Notes: a model not told the origin generated them from the sequence alone. A stretch of 64,000 nt of DNA from an uncultured Christensenella sp. (GCA_949287655.1 CASEHD010000006.1:9126-73125); one strand, 5' to 3'; shown: positions 4,449 through 49,408, counted from the first letter of the stretch. Made by a program: numbers and translations.

Positions 4449-4603
4449 TACCGGCCCAGAATAATACGAACAAGCCCTGAGGCGCGCCTTTTATGCGTTT
4501 TTTAGCGATTCTCACTTGAAAATATTATATTATCAAGGCATTTAACGCAGTAGCTACGGAAATTTGCCGCTTTAAACCGGGTTCGTATTATTCTGGTCTG
4601 GTA
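4449..4603 (+). mobile_element. MITE-like element, copy A (155 bp)
   Basis: Terminal inverted repeats taccggcccagaataatacgaac / gttcgtattattctggtctggta; flanked by TA on both sides; homologous to copies at 28726, 39970 and 47870. Confidence 0.8.
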
Positions 4604-4673
4604 TACGGCAGATTCATATGAACTTCTTTTTTTGTTATCTAAGTATTGCACTTGAAAGTATAATTCACCAAGG

Positions 4674-10642: not shown

Positions 10643-10921
10643 ATGCAAAACAATGAGAATTCAAAAAAGATTTACCCAAGCGCTCAGCTTGATTTTTCAA
10701 CCGGGATAACTCTGAACGGGATAACTGAGATCGTCTCGTCTTCGGACAAGACTTTCGTTGCCCGCGCGGGCGAGGAAGTGTTGACCGTTCAAGGCGAAAG
10801 ATTGAGACCCAAACTGATAGACATCGAAAAAAACACCGCCGTACTCGGCGGCAGAATATACGCCGTATCGAGCAGCAAACAATTAACGCCCAAAGGCTTT
10901 TTCGCGAAAATTTTCAAATAA
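10643..10921 (+). CDS. yabP: sporulation protein YabP
   Basis: GGAGG RBS 6 nt upstream; about 92 aa with the ITLNG...VSSSD...LTVQGERL...GRIYAVSS pattern of YabP; followed by a yabQ-like gene. Confidence 0.7.
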   Translation: MQNNENSKKIYPSAQLDFSTGITLNGITEIVSSSDKTFVARAGEEVLTVQGERLRPKLIDIEKNTAVLGGRIYAVSSSKQLTPKGFFAKIFK

Positions 10922-10922
10922 C

Positions 10923-11288
10923 GTGACAGAGCCCGGCTTGCAATTTTCAATACTCCTTTCCCTTTCCGGAACAGGTATTGCCGTCGGCGGCGTCCTGGCG
11001 GCGCTCGACTTTGCCGACAAATGCCTGGGCGGCAGACGGTTTTTACTTTTTTTATCGGAATTTACCGTCACGATCGCGGGAGGAGCTCTGATCTGGCTGG
11101 TCGTTCTCTTTATGAACGACGGCGTTTTCAGACTGTTTTTCATTCTGCCCACGGCGTTTTTTGCGGTATTTTGCTATATATGTATTCTGAAATTGCTATC
11201 CCCCCGCATCGAAAAGGCAAAATCTGCGCTGAAACGCTTCAAACGTACCCGCGCGGGCAGTTTTCTAGTCAAATATATTCTAAAATAA
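10923..11288 (+). CDS. yabQ: spore cortex biosynthesis protein YabQ-like membrane protein
   Basis: GTG start 1 nt after the yabP stop; small protein with 3-4 TM segments; conserved yabP-yabQ pairing. Confidence 0.6.
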   Translation: MTEPGLQFSILLSLSGTGIAVGGVLAALDFADKCLGGRRFLLFLSEFTVTIAGGALIWLVVLFMNDGVFRLFFILPTAFFAVFCYICILKLLSPRIEKAKSALKRFKRTRAGSFLVKYILK

Positions 11289-11512
11289 AGCATTTTAACC
11301 GTTTTTTATATATTTTTTACTCAAAATAATGCTAAAACCTAAATTTAATTTTTGATACTTTTCTCAACCTGTTTTTAGTTATTCCTACTTTCTTAAAGAT
11401 TATATATCTGTTAAAAATATCCGATTTGTCCTGTATTATCCGGTTTTAAGCTTCTTTATCCGACCGGCTTAAATAATTACGCGCGTAATATAGGATTTCC
11501 GGCTATTCCGTC

Positions 11513-12160
11513 TTGTGCCGCGCGTTTCCCCCTTTTCTTCCGCTTTTTCCCGGGTTTTCCTTTGTTTATCGGTCTTTCCGGGGTTTTTCTGAACTTTTCG
11601 CCTTTTTACCGGGTTTTTTGCTCAAAAAGCCTTTGTTTACCGATCTTTCAGCCGTTTTTGTCTGTTTCCCCCTTCTTTCCCGTGATTGCCGGTTTTTTTC
11701 GCCGAAACACCGATACAATCTTACTTTTCGAGATTTTACGCTCTTTCCTCCTCTTAGCGTTATCTTTCGGATGTTTTCGAGTGTTTCCGGGCGTTTACCT
11801 CTGTTTTACGCCCGTATATGCCTTTTTGCCCCTGTAAGCCGCTTTTCTCGCCTGTTTCCGCTTGTTTTTCCCTTTTCACGTTTTCACCTTGTTTTTCGGC
11901 GATTTTCCTCTCTTTCGACCTCTTTTCCTTATCTCCCATTCTTTACGGCTGTTTTTGCGGATTTTTCTCCTTTTCCCTTTAACCGTCGCCGCTTTCGCTG
12001 TCTTTAAGCGGTTTAACCCCTTCTCCGCCGATATTTCCTCTTTTTTCGACTTTTCCCGCCCGATTCCTCTATCCGGTTGCCTTTTCACCTTAAAACGGCT
12101 TTTAGAGCCTTATTTCTGCGTCTCTCCCGTTTTTCTCCTTTCCTTAGGCTTTTCGCGTTA
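11513..12160 (+). repeat. helically phased T-tract array (A-poor, T/C-rich on the plus strand)
   Basis: A run of at least 3 T occurs in 16 of the 18 consecutive 10-nt blocks from 11521 to 11700; 11521-11620 contains 50 T and 4 A; degenerate longer repeats such as cctttgtttaYcgRtctttc about 71 bp apart. Confidence 0.85.
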
Positions 12161-12170
12161 TATCGCATAT

Positions 12171-12198
12171 AAAAAGGGCGAAGCCGTCGCTTCGCCCT
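12171..12198 (-). terminator. intrinsic terminator downstream of the TrmH-family gene
   Basis: 10-bp stem agggcgaagc-cgtc-gcttcgccct with a T-run on the minus strand. Confidence 0.6.
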
Positions 12199-12342
12199 TG
12201 TATTTCGGCTGTTTTCACATATTTTTCACCTTTTTCGAGGAGAAACCCGAGACCGGATCTAAACGCGCCGCAGACGTTTATTTCACACCCGTAACGGCTT
12301 TTTCTTTCACGGATCGGCTTCCGCTTTTCTGTTAGAACAAGC

Positions 12343-13212
12343 CTACCTTTTCAGATAGCCTTTGTTTTTCAGACTTGCCTCGTAACATACGACCGTTGCC
12401 GCCACTCCGACGTTCAGAGAATCGCATTTGCCGAACATCGGTATCGAAAGCAGTTTTACGTCCTTATCGTACCAACCGCGCGATATTCCGTATCTTTCGC
12501 TTCCCATCACGAAAGCGCAGCGTTTGCCGTACGGATATTCGTAATAGCTCTTCTCTGCCCGGCTGTCCGTAAGATATATCTCAAAACCTCTCTTCGCCAG
12601 AGCGTCGTAGCATTCGTCGGCGTCCGCAAACTCGACGATCGGAATATTCAGAATGCTCCCCATACTGGATTGCAACAGTTTGGGATGCGTCATTCTGGCT
12701 TTACGGTTGCAGATAAACACCGCGTCCACTCCCGCGCCGTCCGCGACCCTTATCATCGTACCGACGTTTCCCGGAATCTCGACCCCGTCGAGGACCAACA
12801 CCACGCTTTTGTCGGTAAAGGAGATATCTCCCGCTTCCGACATCGAAAAATACGCGATACTCATCACCCCGTCAGGCTTTTCTCTCTCACTTATTTTTCC
12901 GAAAGTCCTGGCGCTTACGGTAAATCTCTGATCGCAGGCTTTCGCCATCTCTTCGACCAGTTTCGCCGCCTCTACGGTATAGACTTTTTCGGGACAGATA
13001 ATTATCGCATGAAGCGGAGAACACGCCTCTACGAGCATCTTGTTGAACCACAGCCCCTCCGCCACGTACTGCCTGGCCGGATTGGGTTTGGAGTTGGACG
13101 AGAGCGCCTTTATGTGCTTGACTATCGAATGGCTGTCTCCGACCGCATAAAACCTGTATCTTGCGGTAACGTCGGATATAATTTCCGCCGCCGCTTCGCG
13201 TTCGTTCTGCAT
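12343..13212 (-). CDS. TrmH/SpoU-family RNA 2'-O-methyltransferase
   Basis: ATG at 13212 with AGAGGTGA RBS; motifs LVLDGVEIPGNVGTMIRVADGAG, VMGSERYGIS and IPMFGKCDSLNVGVA match SpoU methylase motifs 1-3. Confidence 0.8.
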   Translation of the reverse strand: MQNEREAAAEIISDVTARYRFYAVGDSHSIVKHIKALSSNSKPNPARQYVAEGLWFNKMLVEACSPLHAIIICPEKVYTVEAAKLVEEMAKACDQRFTVSARTFGKISEREKPDGVMSIAYFSMSEAGDISFTDKSVVLVLDGVEIPGNVGTMIRVADGAGVDAVFICNRKARMTHPKLLQSSMGSILNIPIVEFADADECYDALAKRGFEIYLTDSRAEKSYYEYPYGKRCAFVMGSERYGISRGWYDKDVKLLSIPMFGKCDSLNVGVAATVVCYEASLKNKGYLKR

Positions 13213-13379
13213 TTCTTCACCTCTTTTATACTTACAAGATACCACACCCGCAGACTATATTCAAGCGTTTACCGCCCGCGCCGGATAAGACCCCCGAAAA
13301 GACTCTTAACAGCCGCCCCGAACTATGCCGCGCTATACGCCGGTAAACACCGTGCCGCCTTTACGCAAAAGATTCTTTA

Positions 13380-13990
13380 ATACCTCCCGGCGCAAGCCCG
13401 TCAAAGTCATCGAAGTTTTTGCAAAATCACCGAAAGCCGGCCCCGTGCAAAGTCTTCAACGCCCTCTAACACGTCGCGTTTAAGCTTTCGCAAAACAAAA
13501 AAAAGCACGATCTTCGACACAACGAAGAGCATCACCGAAGTCGCCGCAGTCCGGGTCCCCTCCGAAAGCTCTCCTTCAATCTTCAAAGCGGCATACCGAC
13601 TCGCTTGAAATCCGTCTTACGCAAGTACTTCGACGCCCATCGAATTAGCTTCCGTAAGCCCGCCGAGATCACGCTGCAGATCGAAAAACGATAAAATCAA
13701 CCCGCCGATTTATTTACGAAAAAAAATTTAACGAATTGCACAACTTCAAAAAAACACAAAACGGAGATACCGCCGGCGATAAACAACGGTTTCGATATCC
13801 GACGAAAGCCCGCAAAACACCGGCGGGATTGCAAACGTACGTTGAAAAAACAAGGCGCGCACGGCTGAAAAAGCAAAAGAGCAGGGAAGGACACGCCTTC
13901 TTTCAACAAAAAGGAATGATAAAATGATCGGTACAGAAAGTAACAGGCAAAAAGAAGCTTTCAAACCGCTGATTTGTCAACGAAATTCCG
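13380..13990 (-). repeat. A-tract-rich arm (T-tracts on the minus strand), left of the 14.0-14.24 kb centre
   Basis: Plus strand dominated by caaag / gcaaaa / cgaaag type A-runs; mirror image of the array to the right of 14250. Confidence 0.5.
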
Positions 13991-14032
13991 CAAAAAGGGT
14001 TAGCAATCGGATTTTGATAATTAATTGTAATA

Positions 14033-14059
14033 AATGTTTCACAAAACCTGTGAAACATT
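14033..14059. promoter_or_regulatory. split parS-like palindrome
   Basis: aatgtttcac-aaaacct-gtgaaacatt: both parS half-sites (TGTTTCAC / GTGAAACA) separated by 7 bp. Confidence 0.4.
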
Positions 14060-14217
14060 GGCAAAAATTTTTTTGTTTTTGAAAAAATAAGCCGATTTTT
14101 GTCTATAAAATTATAACCGGATTTTATGGTAAATCAGACGGTTTTGATAAATATGGTTTATATTATACTCATATATGTTATATTTTAGCATATTTTCGGC
14201 TGGATTTTGTCGAAAAT

Positions 14218-14233
14218 TGTTCCGCGTGAAACT
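14218..14233. promoter_or_regulatory. parS-like site (14/16 match)
   Basis: tgttccgcgtgaaact versus Firmicute parS TGTTNCACGTGAAACA. Confidence 0.45.
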
Positions 14234-14249
14234 TTTTAAAATCGCAAGT

Positions 14250-15650
14250 GACAACGAGTTTGCCAAGGCGCTCAAAAGCCCCCTCTTTTTGCCATGAACA
14301 ACCGCCTCTCCGGCGCAACGCCTCTCGCCGACACTTTATACTGAACGCGTTTTCCGAAAACTCGCCTCAGCGCGACTCCCGGCACTTTTTCCGAATATTC
14401 GTTTCCGCGCCTCGCGCCGATAAGGAATTCGAAAACCTCTCTCTGCTCGTACTATCGTCGGCGGGCAGAGCAACGCCCGTGCAACCAAAACTCTATTTAG
14501 ACGTTCTTTACGCGTTTGCGCTTTTTGCGCTTTTTCTACTGTTTTATAAATTGCATATTATCCGTCTTTATTTCGGCTGCGTCAACGTTGACGTTAAATC
14601 TCCGATCGTTCGTTGCGCGTGTACGCGCTCTTTTTTTGTTTCCTACGTTAAAGCCGAAACCGTCACGATCTTTTTGCAAAACGCTTGCGGCTCGATGCCC
14701 TGACGATTTTGCGCTTATACCGTTATCCTGTAAAATCAGACCTCAAGCGGCATCAATGCATATTTTTTCAAATCGCCTTTATTTATACTTTTTATGCTTT
14801 TTCCTCTGTGTATCACTATACGTTATATATTAACTCTTTCGTTACGCTCTTTTCATTGGTCGGATCCTTTTATCCCCTTAGTCTTTGCGCTTATTTTCTT
14901 ATTCTTTGCTTGTTTGATCAACTTCACCCTCTATATGCTCGCGCAAGGCGTTTTTATCAAGCCGACGGGCTTTGCCCTTAACGACAGGCGAAAGAACGGC
15001 TCAAAATGCTTTTTACACGGTCCGCCGGCTGCGTTTCGATATTCTGCGTTTAAGACAAAGGTTGTTTCTTGTTTTGCACAACCTCGTCGTCTCCTACGAC
15101 GTGCCCGATAAAGATCTGACGTCCTTGTGTCAGCTCTCGCATTGCACCTGCGTTTGTATTGACAGCTCGCCTCTCGCGGAAGAGTAGCCTTATACTTCTT
15201 TCGTCACTTCTTTTGATTGTTACGCCGGCTTTATTCTCGACGGGACTCGCGGCGCTTTTTCACGCGATTTTCTTTATGTTTCACATGAAACAAAGCTTTT
15301 TTTGCGTTTTTGCTTTGTTTTTTCTATTAAATATTCTCGCTCTGTCCTTATCAATGAATTTTGTTTCCGATTTTGCAATTCTTACTTTTGTCTGATGTTC
15401 TTTGCCTCCGGTTTTACTTTGCCGTGCTTTTATTGCGAAATTTAAACGGCTTAAAAATAAATGCGACATGCCGGAACTGTCTCGCGCTCTCCGGATATTT
15501 GACTCTCAAACGGCAGGAGAGGGCGGCTTTCCTTATCCCGTTTCCGGTTTACGCCGTCTTCTTCTTTGTAATCTCTTTCAGAATATTTGCGCTTTACCGT
15601 TTTTTTATGCTCTCGATTTTATTTTGATAATGCCTTTTAATTGCTCTATG
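14250..15650 (+). repeat. T-tract-rich, A-poor array (plus strand)
   Basis: Recurrent cttttt / gttttt runs roughly once per 10 bp; all three plus-strand frames stay open for long stretches because stop codons are rare. Confidence 0.65.
15277..15292. promoter_or_regulatory. parS-like site (15/16 match)
   Basis: tgtttcacatgaaaca versus TGTTTCACGTGAAACA. Confidence 0.55.
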
Positions 15651-15989
15651 TAGCGCGAAGCGTGAAAAATTTCTAAAATTGCACTTGTATGCCTTCTGTG
15701 AAGCTTTTTAAGCCGATACGACCTTCTTTTGCCTTTTTATCGGTATTTTCTCGCGCATACCGACAAAGTATATATCCGTATAACGCCGTTTATCGGCAGC
15801 TTCCTTTCTTTATCTTACTCCCGACAAACAGATGTTGGTTCTATATCCGTGTTATGCCGCAAGCGCTCGGACTTTTCAGACATTATCAAACGGCTCCCGG
15901 TTGTTATACCGTCAAATCTACAAATATCGCGGTAACATTAAACCTTATTACGCTTTAAATCGACCCGTAATCGCCGCACCCGCCGATCT

Positions 15990-16800
15990 TTAAAGCCCGA
16001 TCCGGACTTACGACGACCGCAGCTAATACTTTGCGTATAAAAAGCCGTTACGGCTGGCGTACATTAACGATCTTTTCGTTGCTACAACCGTTATTCGTTC
16101 TCAGAATCGGAAAAGAGCGTTTTCACCAAAGCTTCGGACAATCTGCCAAAGGTCGACGATCGGCAAAAGAGCGCTTAAAGCGAAAACGAACAGCACGCAA
16201 AAGCCGTCTGAAATGATAGCCTCATACCGCAAACGCCCCGGATCGTCCGCGTATATTGAAGGGAATACGCATTTAGCGACATAAAACAATCGCGAGCACA
16301 AAGAAATCGGAAACCGGAACGCCAAAACGCCGGCTTGCTTACAAAAAAGTTGTCGCCCGGTCGTCGAAATATTCTTGCCCGAACATCGACTCACGATTTT
16401 TACGCCGTTCAGACAAAGACCTTCCTTTGAACGTACCGGCAGGTAATTACAACGCCACGGTCATTACCTAAGGAGGCAAAAGTCGACGAATAACACCGGA
16501 ATAATATAGAGAGCCGGCGAATTACGTAAGCCGCGGCACAATAAGCCGGCGTTCTTGTCCGTAACGCCCCGCGACAAACTACGCCTTTTTACCGATTGCG
16601 CATAGGGCAGAGCGAAACATCGCGATCGTCATTCTACATACAGAGGAAAAAGATAGCAGAGCAAGGATTAGCGTAAAAAGTAATCGCGTTTAACGATAAG
16701 CGCGTCGACTTACCTCCGGATCTCCGATACGTCCTCATAATGCCGATCAATAACAGGGCAGCGCCCGTCGTTATGAACGGTTTTTCTTTATAAATCAAAA
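15990..16800 (-). repeat. A-tract-rich arm (T-tracts on the minus strand), left of the DnaA-box cluster
   Basis: Plus strand rich in gaaaag / gcaaaag / cgaaaac runs; polarity opposite to 14250-15650 and 17440-18100. Confidence 0.5.
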
Positions 16801-16816
16801 CAGAATTGTTCAGATT

Positions 16817-17245
16817 TGTGGATAAAATCGCGATACAGGGCATTTTAAACGCCGTTTTACTTATCCGGTCGTCAATTTTGTTTTCAAAGTTTTTTCTGTT
16901 TGAGTTATCCGCATAAACGGTCTTTACCGTATTCTCGCGGCAAGTCTGGCATTGTTGTTGATAAACGTTTATATACTGACCGTTAAGTTTCGCTTTTTGT
17001 CTTCCGCACCTTCCGGGTCGCGGGCAAATTTTGAAACTTTAACCGCTTAAACCGTTATACCCGCGCAATATTGCTTTTACCAATGTGGATAACTTATTTG
17101 AAACGAACGGAAAAGTGCCACATTTTTATCAAGTTTTCGACATTCTTTGATAAATTCGTTAATTTCCGCTATTCCCGACGGTCGTTGTAGATAACTTAAT
17201 TCAAAAACTGTTTCATGTGAAACTTTTTCGAAACCGTTATCCACA
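16817..17245. promoter_or_regulatory. DnaA-box cluster upstream of rpmH with no adjacent dnaA
   Basis: Perfect boxes tgtggataa (16817-16825, 17084-17092) and ttatccaca (17237-17245). One-mismatch boxes ttatccgca (16905-16913), tgttgataa (16956-16964) and tgtagataa (17186-17194). Confidence 0.8.
17209..17224. promoter_or_regulatory. parS-like site (14/16 match) inside the DnaA-box cluster
   Basis: tgtttcatgtgaaact. Confidence 0.4.
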
Positions 17246-17439
17246 ACGCCGTTTAAAGGTCTTTTTTCGTTTTTATACCTGTGTTTCCCTTAAAAAGCGG
17301 TTGTGATTCGGCGAATTTCCGGCATTATTCCGGGTTTGCTTCGTCCGATCGGGAGTTCTTTAAAGAGACAATGCCCCTCGGCTTACCGCGATACGGTTCG
17401 TCTAAGCCTTCTTTTCGTCAAAAAGCAGAAAAGAGCAGG

Positions 17440-18100
17440 CATATTTTGCCCGGTAAACACAACCCGAGACGCCTATATTACACATATTATTTCTTTTTTT
17501 CTGACTTTCGAACTTCTTATACTTTTCGATATTTTCTTTCTTGTCATTTTCTTAAATATCGCGCTGCTTTTTGACTTTACCGCTTTTATTCGCGCACTTT
17601 TGTCCGCTTCGCCTTTATTTACAATTATGAAAACGCAAGAGATGAGAGCTCTTTGCCTTTTATCGCGTTTTCGAGTCGTTTTTTCCTCTTATACTTGTAT
17701 TTTTTATTTGCTGCCCGTTAAAATTACCGTAAAATCACCCGATTCTATGCTAAAAAGGTTTGAAGACATGATTTTATCTTTTTTCGTCCTTGATTTGTTT
17801 ATAAAGGCAAAACAGCCTGATCTGCAACATTTTGCCTGTTAATCGGCATATTATTTTCGTTTTTTGACTTATCCGCATGCTTATCTGCAACGCAATAAAA
17901 ATGCGCCGCCTTTTCCGGTCTGGACTCTGTGTGAACTACATGTCTTCCGCATTTAATACACGTTTGTCCGTCAATATTTCTCTTGTTGCTAATATATCTA
18001 TTGGTTATACGCGCCTTTTTCATGTCCCTTTTTTATTATTTGTTCTGCATTTTCCGTTATCTTTATTCTTTTAATTTTCCCGGACTTTCGGAAACCGGAA
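17440..18100 (+). repeat. T-tract-rich, A-poor array (plus strand)
   Basis: ttcttttttt ctgactttcg aacttcttat acttttcgat attttctttc ... pattern; right arm of the DnaA-box centre. Confidence 0.6.
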
Positions 18101-18712
18101 GAAACCGCATAACCGGCTTTTTATTATTCGTATCCGCATCGGACGGCAAAATGCCGCGATCATCATTTTTAGCGATATTTTTAATAAATCGGTTGCAAAA
18201 CAAATCGTCCGTCATGCAGAACAAGGGAAAAGGGTATCGGCGGAAACAAATAATTGCGAAAAGCCTCGGCTTACTTTTTCTCTTGCCGCTCGGGTCGCTG
18301 TGTGGCTGTCGTACAAGCTTTGCGAATTGTAAAAGGTTCTGATAGATTATGAGAGCCTGAATTTGATTTTGCCGCTTTTTGTAAAACAATTCGACCCGCT
18401 GATTGACAAATCGGTAAGAGTGACCGTAATCGTAAAATATACCGCGACGACAAACTTTTAAACCCGTCATCGTCTCAGGTCGGCAGGATATTATTTTCCC
18501 GGCGAAACAAGTGCGGATTTTCGCGGCGATCATGGTCTCAGGGCACGGGCAGCGATCGGCCGGCTTTGCAAAAAGCCCCGGCTCTTCGCCCTGCGGACAG
18601 AAGCGGACGACAGCGATCGCGAAAACCGGGAGAGTATCCTCTCAGACGGACGTGCCGGCGCGTCTTCTCATGCGCACGCGTTTACAATTTCGTTTATACA
18701 AAGTAAAAATCC

Positions 18713-18742
18713 TTGACACGCCTTCTTTATTTATATTATAAT
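18713..18742 (+). promoter_or_regulatory. sigma-A-type promoter for the rpmH operon
   Basis: TTGACA-18 nt-TATAAT, about 105 nt upstream of rpmH. Confidence 0.6.
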
Positions 18743-18848
18743 ACATTCGCTATTGTGGAAAACAGTTCGCTTTTCGCGCTCTTTTTTCCGCGCCGCACCC
18801 GTTTGCGGAAGCTGTATAACGACAATACTAAAAAGAGAGGATAGATTT

Positions 18849-18983
18849 ATGAAAAGAACGTTCCAACCCAAGAAACGCCAGCGCAGCAAAGTGCACGGTT
18901 TCAGAAAGAGAATGAGTTCTACCGGCGGCAGAAACGTCATCAAGAGACGCAGAAACAAAGGCAGAAAGCATCTCAGCGCGTAA
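18849..18983 (+). CDS. rpmH: 50S ribosomal protein L34
   Basis: [44 protein letters not shown]; GAGAGGA RBS. Confidence 0.97.
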
Positions 18984-26297: not shown

Positions 26298-27038
26298 TCA
26301 CGACGTAATTGCTTTGTATAAATTTTTCAACTGATCCGATGTCGGATTTTCGTCTATTATTACCCATCTTATTGTCTTTATTATAAGCGGAATGTTTTGG
26401 CTTTCCTCAGCTCCTTTTATCATGACGGGCACTATCTTCGCGCCGCAGGCAAGCGCCTTATTAAGTTCCATATTTGCAAATCTTCTATTTAAAGAATTTT
26501 CACTGCACAGATAGACGAATACGCCTTCTTGTGAAGTTCTTATTATCTCATCGCCCACATTAATAAAATCAAATTCCACGTCTTTTTTTAAATCAAACAC
26601 ATTAAATCCTCTTTCTTGCAGATAATCAGCCAGCTTTTTCTGAACATGAAAGTCTTTTACGGAACAACTTATAAATATACGATTTCTTTTTATCATATCG
26701 GCTATACTCTTTATCAAATCTATCATACCGTATTTAAAATCTTTTTCAATGTCTATTTCGTAAAATCTGCTTTCATCAATACTTTTAATATATGCAAGTT
26801 CTTTCTGTACCCACTTAGACTGTTCCGAGTTTTCACTCTTGCAATAAAGAAAAATATTACGAGCTTCTATCTCTCTTTTTATAAAATCTTCAAGCTCGAC
26901 GTTGTTGTCGTCAAGACATTTCATAAAAAAAATAAGCGGTTCACAGTTAAGAATTTCAAGAATATCCCTTATCTTTCTTACCTTTTCAACGTCTTTGTGA
27001 GAATGAGATAAAAATATAGTGAGTTTTTCTTCGTTCAT
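26298..27038 (-). CDS. protein with two tandem TIR-like domains
   Basis: IFLSHSHKD...SKWVQKELAY (domain 1) and IFISCSVKD...FANMELNKA (domain 2). Gene is much more AT-rich than its flanks. Its stop lies 2 nt from the rsmG stop. Confidence 0.7.
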   Translation of the reverse strand: MNEEKLTIFLSHSHKDVEKVRKIRDILEILNCEPLIFFMKCLDDNNVELEDFIKREIEARNIFLYCKSENSEQSKWVQKELAYIKSIDESRFYEIDIEKDFKYGMIDLIKSIADMIKRNRIFISCSVKDFHVQKKLADYLQERGFNVFDLKKDVEFDFINVGDEIIRTSQEGVFVYLCSENSLNRRFANMELNKALACGAKIVPVMIKGAEESQNIPLIIKTIRWVIIDENPTSDQLKNLYKAITS

Positions 27039-27409: not shown

Positions 27410-28279
27410 ATGGCTAAAAAATCGGAAGACCGTTCAACTATCGATCTCGCTATTAAGCTGGCAAGCGACGATACTAAAGACGAAACCGTTACTCAGATCG
27501 AATCAAAACTGATAGACACCAATCCCAATCAACCCAGAAAGCATTTCGACGAAGAAAGTCTTAACGAGCTGGCTGTAAGCATTAAAAACTACGGCGTAAT
27601 ACAACCCATTCTCGTTTGCCCGAAGGAAGGCGGAAGATACGAACTTATCGCCGGCGAGAGAAGGTTAAGGGCGAGCAAGATGGCGGGGCTTTCTTTTATC
27701 CCCGCGATAGTAAAGAAATTTACAGAATCGGAAATGGCGGAGATCGCACTTATCGAGAACTTGCAGAGAGAGGATCTCAACCCGATAGAAGAGGCGAGGG
27801 CGTACCGCTCGCTGATGGAAAAATATGGTTTCACGCAGGAAGAACTTGCGGACAAGCTGGGCAAGTCAAGACCGGTAATCGCTAACAGCCTGAGACTTTT
27901 ATCTCTTAACCCTGTCGTCGTAGAGATGGTTGAGACTAACAGACTTTCGGCAGGACATGCAAGATGCCTCGCCTCGATAAAGGATATGGGAGTACAGGCG
28001 ACCTACGCGCTCGCCGCTTGCGACAAACAGCTTTCGGTAAGACAGCTTGAAAATATGGTCAGGGCATACTTAAAACCGGGCAAACAACCCAAGACCCCTA
28101 AAAAGGCGTTTATTTCTCCTGAGCTAAAAGAGCTTGTAAACAACATGCAGCGCACTTTCGGCACTAAGGTTAAGGCTGTCGGCAACAACGAAAAAGGCAG
28201 AATCTTTATAGATTATTATACAAAAGACGACCTTATCAGAATTTACGAGCTTATAGACTCTTTGTCAGAGCAGGAGTAA
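27410..28279 (+). CDS. parB: ParB/Spo0J/Noc-family chromosome partitioning protein
   Basis: GVIQPILV, LIAGERRLRAS and IALIENLQREDLNPIEEA motifs plus an HTH; no parA/soj gene adjacent. Confidence 0.9.
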   Translation: MAKKSEDRSTIDLAIKLASDDTKDETVTQIESKLIDTNPNQPRKHFDEESLNELAVSIKNYGVIQPILVCPKEGGRYELIAGERRLRASKMAGLSFIPAIVKKFTESEMAEIALIENLQREDLNPIEEARAYRSLMEKYGFTQEELADKLGKSRPVIANSLRLLSLNPVVVEMVETNRLSAGHARCLASIKDMGVQATYALAACDKQLSVRQLENMVRAYLKPGKQPKTPKKAFISPELKELVNNMQRTFGTKVKAVGNNEKGRIFIDYYTKDDLIRIYELIDSLSEQE

Positions 28280-28442: not shown

Positions 28443-29048
28443 TTATTCAAGTAAAAAGTATATGATGTTTTTTATTCCGTCTTCATCACCCAATCCTGTA
28501 TCTTTAAAAGTGATTATTATTTTAAGATAATTGTCTTTTTTAAGTTTAAGAGCATATATTTCTCTTTTTTAACTTTATCGTCAATCAACGTTGCCGCTAC
28601 CTTATAATATTCGTATATTTTTTTTACGATAAAATCAACTTCTTTCGCTTCTTATTTCCCGACGTTTACGTTATCGCATCTTCTCGGCATTTCAATATAT
28701 ACTGTTTTTTCAAGCATGTGCCATATACCGGACCGGAATAATACGAACCTGCCATAAGGCGCCCGTGCGACGGGAACATTTTTCGCTGTCGCGTATAGTT
28801 GCCCGCTTTACAAAGCTCAGCCTTTTTTGTTTTGTGCCCCGGGTTTATGAAACATGCGGCAAAAATCATTGCTTGAGGGTGCTTGCAGTTTTAAGCCGGC
28901 AAATTTTTGTCGATACAAGGAAAATGCCGCAGGTAACATTAGACATATTATCAAGGCATTTAACGCAGTAGCTACGAAAATTTGCCGCTTTAAACCAGGT
29001 TCTTATTATTCTGGTCCGGTATACCTTACTTTTACTTGAAAACATCAT
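28443..29048 (-). pseudogene. decayed AT-rich ORF interrupted by MITE copy B
   Basis: Removing 28726-29021 plus one TA joins ATGATG... (29048) in frame to ...VWHMLEKTVYIEMPRRCDNVNVGK. An in-frame TAA (28652-28654) and a frame change near 28536-28541 follow. The 3' end ...IIYFLLE* is followed by a good terminator. Confidence 0.4.
28726..29021 (+). mobile_element. MITE-like element, copy B (296 bp, longest)
   Basis: taccggaccggaataatacgaacc ... ggttcttattattctggtccggta; flanked by TA/TA; contains extra internal modules and an internal inverted repeat gttttaagccggcaaattt / aaatttgccgctttaaac. Confidence 0.8.
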
Positions 29049-30401: not shown

Positions 30402-30434
30402 ATGTCCTCCACGCCCTTTTTTACTCAAGGGCTA

Positions 30435-30606
30435 ATTATTACGTATTTAATTTTAATAAATCGATAATAAAAATCTTAATAAGGGATGTGGATATGTGGA
30501 TAAGATTTTTTTAAAGCTTTTTATCCTCACATATTAAGATTTTTTTATCCATATACACGTTTGGAAAAGCTGTTGATAAAACCGAAAAGTTTTCCACTTA
30601 TCCAAA
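30435..30606. promoter_or_regulatory. dnaA-dnaN intergenic DnaA-box cluster with an AT-rich unwinding-type segment (candidate oriC core)
   Basis: Boxes: tgtggatat (30487-30495), tgtggataa (30495-30503, perfect), ttatcctca (30521-30529), ttatccata (30545-30553), tgttgataa (30571-30579) and ttatccaaa (30598-30606). The 30435-30485 segment is almost pure A/T, with TAA TAA AAA TCT TAA TAA abutting GGG and the tandem boxes. Confidence 0.75.
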
Positions 30607-30615
30607 CGGCGCGGT

Positions 30616-31986
30616 TTATTTTTTCTGTATCATCGCCTTTATGTCGTTTACCTGCGCCTGAATGAGCTTGTCTGATTTACAAAGGCTGGTTATCTTATCG
30701 CGGGCGTACATGACCGTCGTGTGGTCCTTGCCGAAATAAGAAGCGATACTTGTCAGGGGCAGACCGAGTATGTCGTTTATAAGATAAATAGCGATCTGCC
30801 TTGCGAGAGCGATATTCTTCATCTTCTTCTTACCGACTATATCGGCGCGCTTTATGTTGTAATAAGTGCATGTAGCGTCCACGATATTATCGATTGATAT
30901 GACGTGGGTAGAGACGTTGATATAATCTTTCAGCGCCTCTCTGGCGGTATCTATGTCGCAAACCTCTTTTTTTTCGAGAGAGCAGAAGAAAAAGACTTTT
31001 GAAAGAGCGCCTTCAAGTTCTCTTACGTTTGAAGAGATATTTTCGGCGATAAAGAATAACACGTCGTTACTTACGCTGAATTTTTTGAGTTCGGCTTTCT
31101 TTTTCAGGATTGCGACTCTTGTCTCTACCGACGGGTTGGTTATATCGACGGTAAGACCGCATTGAAATCTCGATTGAAGTCTTTCTTCGATAAAAGTAAG
31201 TTCTTTGGGATGGCGGTCGCTCGAAAGCACGATCTGTTTTTTGTTCTGATACAGGTCGTTGAATGTATGGAACAACGCTTCCTGAGAGCTCATTTTACTC
31301 GAAAGAAACTGCACGTCGTCTATCATAAGGACGTCGGCGTTGCGGTACTTTTCGCGGAAACTCTTATTGAGTTTATTGTCGCTTATCTTTGAAGCCTGTC
31401 TTGAAGGAGACAGGGAATCTATAAATTCGTTGACGAACTGTTCGCTCGTAACGTAAAGTATTTTCTTTGTTTTGTCTACTGAATGAATATAGTTGCCGAT
31501 AGCGTGCAGAATATGAGTTTTGCCTAAACCTACTCCGCCGTAAATAAAGAGGGGGTTATAGAGTACGCCCGGGTTTTCCGCGACCGCTTTCGCCGCGCTT
31601 GACGCGATGTTGTTGCAGTCGCCGACGACAAAATTGTCGAATGTATAAGAGGGATTTAATATATATTTGAAATCGTCCTCTTCCGTCTTTGTTTCTGCGG
31701 GTTGAAAGGTCTCTTTTTCAGGTTTGTAATTTTTTGCTTCTTCTTCCGTAATAACGATGATATCGGTCACGTAAGAGCCCGATTTTTCAATGGCGTCCCT
31801 GACAACGGTATTCTTAAAGCCGTCCACGGTCTTTTTGACGGAGACGAGCGGGGCGACCATTATCAGTTTATTGTTTTCTATCGTAAGAGGGACCAGTTTA
31901 CCGAACCACATCTCATAGCTTACGGTAGACATCGCCGCTTCGATATAAGAAGAAATATCTTTCCAGATTTTTACGCTTTCGTTCAT
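30616..31986 (-). CDS. dnaA: chromosomal replication initiator protein DnaA
   Basis: 456 aa; Walker A GGVGLGKTHIL, AAA+ sensor motifs, C-terminal DnaA-box-binding domain ...DHTTVMYA. Confidence 0.97.
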   Translation of the reverse strand: MNESVKIWKDISSYIEAAMSTVSYEMWFGKLVPLTIENNKLIMVAPLVSVKKTVDGFKNTVVRDAIEKSGSYVTDIIVITEEEAKNYKPEKETFQPAETKTEEDDFKYILNPSYTFDNFVVGDCNNIASSAAKAVAENPGVLYNPLFIYGGVGLGKTHILHAIGNYIHSVDKTKKILYVTSEQFVNEFIDSLSPSRQASKISDNKLNKSFREKYRNADVLMIDDVQFLSSKMSSQEALFHTFNDLYQNKKQIVLSSDRHPKELTFIEERLQSRFQCGLTVDITNPSVETRVAILKKKAELKKFSVSNDVLFFIAENISSNVRELEGALSKVFFFCSLEKKEVCDIDTAREALKDYINVSTHVISIDNIVDATCTYYNIKRADIVGKKKMKNIALARQIAIYLINDILGLPLTSIASYFGKDHTTVMYARDKITSLCKSDKLIQAQVNDIKAMIQKK

Positions 31987-39969: not shown

Positions 39970-40166
39970 TACCAGCCCAGAATAATACGAACCAGCCCTG
40001 AGGTGCGCCTTTTATGCGTTTTTTAGCGATTCTCACTTGAAAATATTATAATATTATCTGCGTTCGAAATGCCGCAGGTAATATCAGACATATTATCAAG
40101 GCTTTTAACGCAGTAGCTACGGAAATTTGCCGCTTTAAACCAGGTTCGTATTATTCTGGTCTGGTA
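39970..40166 (+). mobile_element. MITE-like element, copy C (197 bp)
   Basis: taccagcccagaataatacgaacc ... ggttcgtattattctggtctggta; TA/TA flanks; equals copy A plus a 42-nt internal module shared with copy B. Confidence 0.8.
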
Positions 40167-40258
40167 TAACCGAAAGAAGGTAAAAGGCGGACGGACAAGA
40201 GCGGAAAGTTGTAAATCAGCCGGATATCCGTATTTTATCGTTTAATCGGTATTGTCGG

Positions 40259-47748: not shown

Positions 47749-48128
47749 TCAGTCTATACAGAGTATATGATTGGCGTCGACGTCGAGAAGTTTGCACAGA
47801 TTGGCGAGAGTGTCGAGCGCAGGCATTGCCCGACCCGAAAGATATTGCCCTACGGTCGGTTGTTTATAATACCAGACCGGAACAATACGAACCGGGTTTA
47901 AAGCGGCAAATTTTCGTAGCTACTGTGTTAAATGCCTTGATAATTATACTATTACCTGCGGCATTTGCCTTGTATCAACAAAAATTTGCCTGCTTAAAAC
48001 TGCAAGCCCCCTAAGGGCGGGTTCGTATTGCTCCGGTCTGGTTTTCCCGGTTTTTCTGCAAGCTGCGTTTGCGTATTACTTTTTATAACATTGATAAGCC
48101 TTTCTCTTATTTGTTAGATTGTGACCAT
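47749..48128 (-). pseudogene. XRE-family HTH regulator gene disrupted by MITE copy D and a premature stop
   Basis: Minus strand: GGAG RBS, then ATG GTC ACA ATC TAA, then QIRERLINVIKSNTQTQLAEKPGK | MITE | KQPTVGQYLSGRAMPALDTLANLCKLLDVDANHILCID*. Confidence 0.7.
47870..48043 (-). mobile_element. MITE-like element, copy D (174 bp, inverted orientation)
   Basis: taccagaccggaacaatacgaacc ... ggttcgtattgctccggtctggtt; the internal right-end module is the reverse complement of that in copies A-C; flanks are aa/tt rather than TA/TA. Confidence 0.75.
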
Positions 48129-48349: not shown

Positions 48350-48535
48350 GATTTTACAAAGACCGTAACCGGAACATAAGAAAACGTTTCCAAACGACGG
48401 ATTTTGCTGTGTGTTTTGGCGACACGAACGAAGATAACGGTATACATATTTTCAAGTGAGCGTCGGCAAAAGACACGTCAAAGACGCGTATCAGAAACGC
48501 GTTTATATGCTTTCGTTGCGGTATAAAAAATAAAT

Positions 48536-48659
48536 ATTCTTTGGGCAAGCGTAAAGCTGACCGGTGGTAATGCCGCCTCTGTGCGGACGAGTCCGACAAC
48601 CTCAATAGCTGATACGGTGAGATCCCGTAACCGCCTGTAAAGTCAGAATGGGAAAGAAT
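48536..48659 (+). ncRNA. FMN riboswitch (RFN element) aptamer
   Basis: P1 attcttt/aaagaat. GGGCAAGCGTAAAGCTGACCGGTGGTA aligns with RFN GGGGCAGGGUG.AAAU.CCCGACCGGCGGUA. GAGTCCGACAACC aligns with GAGCCCGUGACCC. CGGTGAGATCCCGTAACCGCCTGTAAAGTCAGAATGGGAAAGAA aligns with CGGUGAGAUUCC..AGCCGACAGU.AAAGUCUGGAUGGGAGAAGA. Confidence 0.7.
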
Positions 48660-48702
48660 GTTGAACGGCGCACGTCGTGCGTTGATTTTGCGTTTTTACT
48701 TG

Positions 48703-48730
48703 CCCGTTGCGTATTCCGCGACGGGTTTTT
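48703..48730 (+). terminator. riboswitch expression-platform terminator
   Basis: cccgttgcg-tattc-cgcgacggg followed by ttttt, 55 nt before the start codon. Confidence 0.7.
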
Positions 48731-48784
48731 CACGTCTTATTCAGGCGTTTTGCTTTTTGCCTTCCCGAAGAAAAAGGAGAGTTT

Positions 48785-49408
48785 ATGACTTACAGGACGA
48801 AAAAACTTGCGCTTACCGCGCTCATGTCCGCGCTTGCCGCGGTGCTTACGCTCGTATCCGTTCCCCTCCCCGGCGGCGGGTATTACAATTTCGGCGACGT
48901 CGCGATATTTATCGCAGCCGCTGCCTTAGGACCTCTCGCAGGAGCGCTGGTCGGAGGACCGGGCGGCGCGCTGGGCGACCTTATCCTCGGCTATACCTTT
49001 TACGCGCCGTTTACCCTCGTGATAAAGGCTATCGAAGGTCTGCTTGCGGGATCGCTTTTCAAAGTATTTAAAAAGGCGTTTATAAAGGAAGAGAAAAGGG
49101 GGAAAAAGATAATTTTTTCAACTCTTTCAAACTTAGTCGGCGGACTCGTTATGGCGGCGGGGTATTTTCTTGCGGAAGGACTGCTGCTTGCAGAAGGAAA
49201 GTGGCAGGGCGGGCTTGTCAATCTGCCGTGGAACGCGCTGCAAGGCGCGGTCAGTGCGGTAGTCGCGCCCGTTATCCTGTTCGCGTGCCGTCTCGAAAAT
49301 GTGATAAACAAGACTTTGAATTATCCGCGCAAGAAGTCGGACGGCGGGAACAATGACGGCGCCGAAGAGACGAAAGATGAACGCGAAAACACGAACGTCA
49401 AAGGTTAA
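48785..49408 (+). CDS. ECF transporter S component (FMN-riboswitch-controlled, probably riboflavin uptake)
   Basis: AAAGGAGAG RBS; about 207-aa protein with about 6 TM segments; GGYYNFGDVAIFIAAAALGP...LGDLILGY pattern of ECF S components; substrate inferred only from the upstream RFN element. Confidence 0.75.
   Translation: MTYRTKKLALTALMSALAAVLTLVSVPLPGGGYYNFGDVAIFIAAAALGPLAGALVGGPGGALGDLILGYTFYAPFTLVIKAIEGLLAGSLFKVFKKAFIKEEKRGKKIIFSTLSNLVGGLVMAAGYFLAEGLLLAEGKWQGGLVNLPWNALQGAVSAVVAPVILFACRLENVINKTLNYPRKKSDGGNNDGAEETKDERENTNVKG

Follow-up and report, generated by a model that had tools for sequence, protein, structure and literature searches.

Conserved parS-like sites and DnaA boxes in a gene-free interval upstream of rpmH in an uncultured Christensenella

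Results

The interval at 13213-18850 in a 64,000-nt stretch of the genome of an uncultured Christensenella sp. (the window), which separates a SpoU-type methylase gene from rpmH, is gene-free and non-coding, and it carries a few short sequence islands that are conserved in sequence and order and constrained in spacing among related species, set in DNA whose composition matches the local background. The islands comprise parS-like sites and DnaA boxes, and with slightly better than even confidence the interval may be read as an origin-proximal partition and initiator-binding locus of the Christensenellaceae chromosome, embedded in a spacer that would be unconstrained in sequence. The initial annotation of this DNA had linked the non-coding interval to the replication and segregation machinery, and the conserved parS-like sites and DnaA boxes support that link. 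Its further statement that no standard feature class explains the region is not supported, as the conserved islands belong to standard classes.

Conserved islands within the interval

Seven related loci (L001-L007) were compared with the window. The first six come from uncultured Christensenellaceae and Christensenella genomes and show 83-86% identity in the methylase, which falls to 68% in L007; the contig of L004 stops short of rpmH. In the other six loci the methylase-rpmH distance is 5.4-9 kb, and seven species, including that of the window, retain a largely or wholly non-coding stretch of this length although their genes are ~66-86% identical at the DNA level. Conservation in relatives, named by the initial annotation as a check, is thus borne out for the stretch as such. 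At the sequence level, blastn and tblastx align only islands, namely 13990-14270, 17085-17265 and the rpmH promoter region from ~18703, with DNA conservation resuming at ~18703-18712. In the more distant L008-L012 the DNA upstream of the methylase is ordinary coding sequence. A metagenome scan for further relatives returned six loci, none of them spanning the region, and a literature search on Christensenella origins or gene-free parS regions gave no relevant match.

The chromosomal parS/ParB centromere sites of Bacillota have the consensus TGTTNCACGTGAAACA, and the window was searched for this 16-bp palindrome at up to three mismatches. Three matches were found against 0.25 expected by chance, and all lie within the interval: TGTTCCGCGTGAAACT at 14218-14233 (three mismatches), TGTTTCACATGAAACA at 15277-15292 (one mismatch) and TGTTTCATGTGAAACT at 17209-17224 (two mismatches). 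Of the six heptamers GTTTCAC/GTGAAAC in the window, five also fall inside the interval, and at 14035-14057 both parS halves are present with 7 bp between them, as TGTTTCAC-AAAACCT-GTGAAACA. The order of the parS-like sites is unchanged in L001-L007, and the site at 15277, surrounded by unalignable DNA, recurs wherever the contig reaches that position. No parS-like site was found outside the methylase-rpmH stretch in the relatives' loci. Six species have 2.46-3.08 kb between the first of the AT-rich centres described below and the third parS-like site; the neighbouring spacers vary 3-4 fold. The window also encodes a protein that passes the ParB domain model, at 27410-28279 on the plus strand.

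The first of these centres, centre 1 (14035-14233), is opened by the split parS and closed by the parS-like site at 14218-14233, with ~160 bp of AT-rich DNA (GC 0.28) containing small conserved blocks in between. The opening element is invariant across species as TGTTTCAC-AAAANNN-GTGAAACA. The span of centre 1 is exactly 197 bp in the window, L001, L002, L003, L005 and L006, the L004 sequence aligns to these without gaps, and the resulting seven-species alignment has 221 columns, zero gaps and 138 (62%) variable positions. A small gene or a structured RNA was considered and rejected here, since the variable sites show no codon phase, stops occur in every frame and RNAalifold yields only an invariant hairpin, with no covariation beyond it. 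Variation of this kind, without gaps, fits a protein-DNA assembly under a helical-phase constraint. Centre 1 contains no DnaA box at up to one mismatch.

Centre 2 is of a different kind. DnaA boxes were counted at up to one mismatch from the consensus TTATCCACA; the whole window has 30 against 8 expected, and six of them (three perfect) lie at 16817-17245, in agreement with the AT-rich DnaA-box centre that had been annotated at 16.8-17.28 kb. The boxes at 16817, 16905 and 16956 are unalignable in the relatives, and only two or three of the six are conserved. The core of centre 2 (17084-17245) contains boxes at 17084-17092 (minus strand), 17186-17194 (minus strand, one mismatch) and 17237-17245 (plus strand), a TTCGACA motif at 17136-17142, similar to a Spo0A box in reverse, and the parS-like site at 17209-17224, whose spacing to the DnaA boxes is constant at 23-24 bp and 125-126 bp across the relatives. 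Inspection by eye of the DNA beside the boxes at 17084, 17186 and 17237 revealed neither a trio-like repeat nor an AT-rich unwinding stretch, and these flanks are not conserved.

Absence of genes

The methylase gene occupies 12343-13212 on the minus strand. Its open reading frame (ORF) as listed begins at GTG, and the gene is on record only with the ATG at 13212 as start; this ATG is most likely the true start, which sets the limits of the gene-free interval at 13213-18850. At the other end, rpmH (18851-18982, plus strand) is preceded by a promoter at 18713-18742 on the same strand, with TTGACA and TATAAT separated by an 18-nt spacer and matching the consensus at 12 of 12 positions.

Between the islands lie four non-coding arms, L1 (13213-13985, from the methylase start codon to centre 1), R1 (14246-15960), L2 (15961-16800) and R2 (17251-18100). 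Period-3 power in the arms is 0.9-1.4 times the background (1.37 in L1, 1.39 in R1 and 0.94 in R2), compared with 7-35 times in the five genes tested. A six-frame Pfam search of the interval with stops masked gave no match at E<=0.1, Rfam gave none inside the interval at the gathering threshold or at E<=1, and ARAGORN found no transfer RNA (tRNA) gene there. A blastn comparison of the interval with phage and plasmid records gave no DNA match, and tblastx of the arms against the seven relatives showed no trace of genes. The plus-strand ORFs at 14248-14703 and 17303-17842 carry frameshifting indels in two sister strains, L013 and L015, several of them within T-runs, and the initial remark that such long ORFs are open only because A-poor DNA is short of stop codons proved right.

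A segment of ordinary composition at 18101-18700 retains a faint period-3 signal (2.8) and contains an orphan ORF at 18063-18533 on the minus strand. The sole database homologue of this ORF comes from the species itself and is truncated to 108 aa; no homologue was found beyond the species and no tblastx match in the relatives, and it is most likely not a gene.

Several classes of feature were rejected for the interval on these grounds. Hidden genes are ruled out by the six-frame Pfam search, the tblastx comparison, the period-3 spectra and the homologue search of the one ORF of ordinary composition, and a known RNA or large structured non-coding RNA by the lack of Rfam matches, the unalignable arms and the single invariant hairpin of centre 1. 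A prophage or plasmid remnant is discounted for want of phage or plasmid similarity by blastn, and pseudogenes because the arms show neither residual protein homology nor codon periodicity. The annotation of the interval as empty is therefore upheld, and the Rfam and tblastx checks that it proposed uncovered no non-coding RNA or decayed gene. Its estimate that about one third of 6.8-18.8 kb is coding is also close to the figure of about 36% obtained from the gene list.

Composition and polarity of the arms

On the plus strand, AT skew in 300-nt windows is +0.20 to +0.39 at 13.3-14.05 kb and -0.26 to -0.43 at 14.35-15.85 kb, and then +0.21 to +0.29 at 16.0-16.75 kb and -0.15 to -0.38 at 16.75-18.1 kb. 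The interval had initially been described as a mirror layout, with A-rich and T-rich arms changing polarity around two centres, and a skew plot had been proposed as its test; the A/T switches are present at the places described, but G/C does not mirror them. The GC skew on the plus strand is negative throughout the interval, with C exceeding G everywhere, and flips at neither centre. Arm L1 is A-rich (AT skew +0.28, GC skew -0.20), as is L2 (AT skew +0.20), while R1 (T 0.37, A 0.19) and R2 (T 0.42, A 0.22) are T-rich. Taken on their T-rich strand, the left arms are rich in G and T and the right arms in C and T; the GC skew keeps its sign, and the two sides are thus sequences of different kinds.

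The arms had further been described as T-tract arrays, a description that does not survive closer analysis. Tracts of four or more T occur in the arms at ~2-2.7 times the mononucleotide expectation, which is barely above the expectation of a first-order Markov model, and ordinary intergenic DNA elsewhere in the window is at least as enriched. TRF and a repeat finder gave only low-complexity T-rich matches in the arms and no repeat families, and no k-mers are enriched there beyond composition. Helical phasing at 10-11 bp is absent from the arms, and phased arrays of curved DNA were rejected as an explanation of them on that account.

The composition of the arms follows that of the surrounding DNA. 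Pooled non-coding AT/GC skew is -0.20/-0.15 left of 13.2 kb, -0.11/-0.04 at 18.9-29.3 kb and +0.085/+0.09 right of 30.4 kb, and the arms without the two A-rich patches have -0.21/-0.10, equal to the local background. The match to the left-flank pool implies that the interval behaves as left-flank DNA.

Six relatives share the polarity flip at centre 1 with the window, and an A-rich segment at the position of L1 is found in all seven species (AT skew +0.19 to +0.46) despite turnover of the sequence. Arm L2, in contrast, is species-specific, with AT skew negative or near zero at that position in the relatives. The proposed repeated, symmetric architecture is thus not sustained: centre 1, an AT-rich module with two parS-like elements and no DnaA box, is unlike centre 2 with its core of DnaA boxes, TTCGACA and parS-like site, and conservation is confined to the flip at centre 1.

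Variation among strains and relatives

Four contigs of the same species were recovered: two match the window exactly, and the other two (L013 and L015) are ~98-98.6% identical to it. The differences are unevenly distributed. In a 3.2-kb tract at 15.6-18.9 kb, L013 and L015 share one allele that is 4-6% off the window and ends at the rpmH promoter, while the flanks of the tract (the left arm, centre 1 and the neighbouring genes) differ between strains by 0-0.4%. The tract, which includes arm L2 (5.6% divergence), is most simply explained as a recombination import. Divergence in the centre 2 core is 2.35%, lower than in the surrounding variable tract. Within R1, single-T indels distinguish the window strain from a sister strain.

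Among the relatives, the extra length of the stretch arises where a MacB-like fused ABC ATPase-permease gene adjoins rpmH. The gene is intact in L005 (1205-4489, 1095 aa), split in L001 (1330-4369), internally deleted in L003 (4054-5091, 346 aa) and fragmentary in L002 (3980-5122; all in locus coordinates), and no trace of it was found in the window. Outside this transporter the stretch is ORF-poor in all relatives, and that of L007 has 7.8 kb without codon periodicity though its G+C content is 50-57%.

Position of the replication origin

The dnaA gene (30616-31986, minus strand) lies 13 kb from centre 2 and hence is not adjacent to it. The dnaA-dnaN spacer (30429-30615, GC 0.29) contains six DnaA boxes, including a tandem pair. 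Beside the tandem boxes, inspection by eye showed a short GC spacer and, at 30429-30500, trio-like repeats of the AAT type and AT-rich DNA, a layout that is also that of the Bacillus unwinding region. On these sequence features, the dnaA-dnaN spacer is more likely than centre 2 to be the unwinding origin. The cumulative G-C curve has its minimum at 27.6 kb and the A-T curve at 33.2 kb; the cumulative skew falls steeply to 18 kb, forms a plateau at 18-33 kb and rises beyond. The third-position GC skew is dominated by codon preference and, with so few genes, is too noisy to place the origin.

Genomic context and neighbouring features

To the left of the interval lie trkA and trkH (both minus), a GH18 lipoprotein gene (plus), a MatE gene (minus), two small plus-strand genes and the methylase (minus). 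To the right, rpmH, rnpA, yidC and jag (plus) are followed by mnmE (minus), mnmG and rsmG (plus), a gene for a TIR protein (minus) and the ParB-family gene (plus), and farther by dnaN, dnaA and recF (minus) and gyrB and gyrA (plus). The gene order is unusual in that recF-dnaA-dnaN is on the minus strand, 12 kb from rpmH, while the rpmH-to-parB block is on the plus strand.

The two small genes at 10643-11288 are kept in the relatives, the first being weakly YabP-like and the second resembling a small membrane protein. These hint at sporulation-type genes, which bears on the Spo0A-box-like TTCGACA in centre 2; the family Christensenellaceae is usually described as non-sporulating.

The non-coding spacer downstream of the methylase contains, at 11400-12300, an array of T-tracts phased at 10.0 bp with a consensus of about (C/G)NTTTTTNCC. 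The periodicity reaches 38 times the background, is the only such case in the 64 kb and is accompanied by no period-3 signal. A periodicity of 9.9-10.0 bp (11-54 times the background) recurs in the syntenic spacers of six relatives, at 10.9-12.6 kb in L001, 10.7-11.8 kb in L002, 11.1-11.7 kb in L003, 3.0-3.5 kb in L004, 10.9-11.4 kb in L005 and 10.7-12.3 kb in L006, in sequences that are unalignable; it is absent in L007 and beyond. The array probably represents strongly curved DNA that has been conserved at the level of structure. At 12092-12207 on the minus strand, a match to the ylbH leader in Rfam that stays below threshold (30.8 bits against a gathering score of 50, E 0.0017) overlaps a strong terminator hairpin downstream of the methylase and is probably just that hairpin.

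Several other features of the window were noted. A dispersed repeat of ~80-150 bp with 89-95% identity occurs at 28724-29023, 40067-40168, 47869-48012 (minus strand) and 4527-4606, and also in L003-L005; the copy at 28.7-29.0 kb carries 28-nt terminal inverted repeats and thus resembles a miniature inverted-repeat transposable element. The TIR-domain protein (TIR_2 or ThsB-like) is encoded at 26298-27038 on the minus strand, between rsmG and the ParB-family gene, and sister strain L013 has a different TIR gene and an acetyltransferase gene just after jag (292-1656), which suggests a variable defence-gene slot beside the origin. A flavin mononucleotide (FMN) riboswitch lies at 48532-48663 (plus strand), upstream of a gene at 48707-49408.

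Discussion

If the interval is a partition and initiator-binding locus, its functional parts would be the four short islands, with three near-consensus parS-type sites, a fourth parS split by a 7-bp spacer, and one compact core in which DnaA boxes are joined to a parS-like site. A ParB-family protein and DnaA would bind these islands, and the locus could serve both as a loading zone resembling a centromere and as an auxiliary cluster of DnaA boxes, of the type usual between rpmH and dnaA but now apart from dnaA. Unwinding itself would most likely take place 13 kb away, in the dnaA-dnaN spacer. The arms between the islands would be spacer DNA without sequence constraint, their T- and C-rich plus strand being the ordinary non-coding composition on this side of the skew turning zone, and the spacer may be retained as room for ParB spreading and SMC loading clear of transcription.

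Several points weigh against this reading. The only ParB-family protein of the window scores best against the Noc model, under its cut-off, and no ParA gene was identified within the window. The sites read CACATG or CATGTG, not the canonical central CACGTG, and one parS is split by 7 bp, a spacing unlikely to suit a ParB dimer. The skew places the origin only within 18-33 kb, which leaves room for a role of centre 2 in initiation. Moreover, to call the arms a spacer does not explain why deletion-prone bacteria retain 5-8 kb here, nor does it account for the persistent A-rich polarity of the left arm in all seven species.

In an alternative reading, divergent non-coding transcription starts from centre 1; to the left it would give a U-rich leader running into the methylase, and to the right a non-coding RNA that is likewise U-rich. 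The T-richness of the sense strands would then reflect either a transcription-linked bias or selection for A-poor, untranslatable and readily terminated RNA. Promoter-like hexamer pairs are indeed positioned back to back within centre 1 and face outward, at 14150-14121 (minus strand) and 14157-14184 (plus strand), the latter with a TTATAT/TTATAA block at the -10 position that six species retain; a GC hairpin with a T-run follows ~430 nt downstream, at 14615-14638, and the flip persists in all seven species though the arm sequence is not conserved. However, promoter-like sites number 9 against 13 expected, AT-rich DNA yields such matches by chance, and neither promoters nor terminators are enriched. 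A plausible proximal promoter of the methylase itself was recognised by eye on the minus strand, directly before the ATG of that gene, the G/C skew lacks a transcription-type flip, the T-richness right of centre 1 is that of the replichore background, and there is no conserved RNA structure, and the transcriptional explanation is considered unlikely. It is likewise improbable that the arms are genes lost from the origin flank and eroded beyond recognition, with a composition inherited from their coding strands, even though the MacB-like transporter is seen in mid-decay at the rpmH end of the relatives, from the intact gene of L005 to the damaged ones of L001, L003 and L002, and though the faint period-3 signal persists at 18.1-18.7 kb. 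The arms are devoid of any protein-family or tblastx trace, in each of the seven species the segments between the islands are ORF-poor or lack codon periodicity, the islands stand at fairly constant distances, and the composition is like that of other intergenic DNA and unlike that of eroded genes. The presence of the empty state in all seven species further implies that it arose before a divergence deep enough for neutral sites to be saturated, and pseudogenes are as a rule lost from genomes well before that.

Very improbable is the model implied by the initial annotation, in which each centre is a replication origin or half-origin and the mirrored T-richness a replication strand bias. The DnaA-box cluster at 16.8-17.25 kb, the position of the interval at the left edge of the skew turning zone and the change of gene orientation from the methylase (minus) to rpmH (plus) would accord with it, but centre 1 is without a DnaA box, the GC skew flips at neither centre and the second A/T flip is unconserved. 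The trio-like repeats and unwinding stretch that are absent at centre 2 are present in the dnaA-dnaN spacer, and the far-right non-coding plus strand is A- and G-rich, so that with an origin in 18-33 kb the leading strand would be purine-rich, the opposite of T-rich outward. A more elaborate, and doubtful, possibility is that the interval is a "regional centromere", a selected gene-free platform with ParB-type sites at constrained distances and symmetric A/T-tract polarity around a phase-locked double-parS module, accompanied by the neighbouring phased array of 0.4-1.7 kb; it would then serve as an organising centre of origin segregation in which spacer length and strand polarity, and not sequence, are functional.

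It is rare in bacteria for a non-coding stretch of 5-8 kb to persist from species to species, and this one brings together all parS-type sites found near the origin and a DnaA-box cluster split off from dnaA. If the spacer is selected, this would show that bacterial partition complexes can need dedicated gene-free DNA, a point relevant to the coexistence of ParB spreading, SMC loading and transcription at origins. If it is neutral, it offers a natural case of weak deletion pressure and an in-genome neutral reference for studies of strand bias in an important gut family.

Comparison with known systems

The parS-like sites share with those of Bacillota the 16-bp palindrome type (at one to three mismatches), the origin-proximal clustering, the conserved position and a ParB-family gene nearby. 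Bacillus subtilis has roughly ten origin-proximal parS sites, and in Bacillota such sites are located within genes over tens to hundreds of kb, whereas here all lie in one gene-free block, have deviant central dinucleotides and include one split by an invariant 7-bp spacer containing AAAA, and two of them flank a module with a fixed length of 197 bp. Binding to half-site heptamers is known for ParB of Pseudomonas aeruginosa.

The bipartite oriC of Bacillota has an upstream DnaA-box cluster between rpmH and dnaA, and DnaA-box clusters also occur outside oriC, as in B. subtilis and as datA in E. coli. Centre 2 resembles the rpmH-dnaA cluster in that consensus DnaA boxes, with the Spo0A-box-like TTCGACA among them, adjoin rpmH. 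It is unlike that cluster in that dnaA is 13 kb off and inverted, no trio-like repeat or unwinding stretch is present, a parS-like site is embedded between the boxes at fixed spacing and only two or three boxes are conserved.

Finally, the arms are like ordinary intergenic or eroded pseudogene DNA in their lack of sequence conservation, homopolymer indels between strains, and matching composition and tract content, and differ from it in that 5-8 kb are kept in seven species, with a near-constant distance between islands and one conserved polarity flip. The recognisable parts of the locus are thus of known kinds, and it is its size and evolutionary persistence that are unusual.

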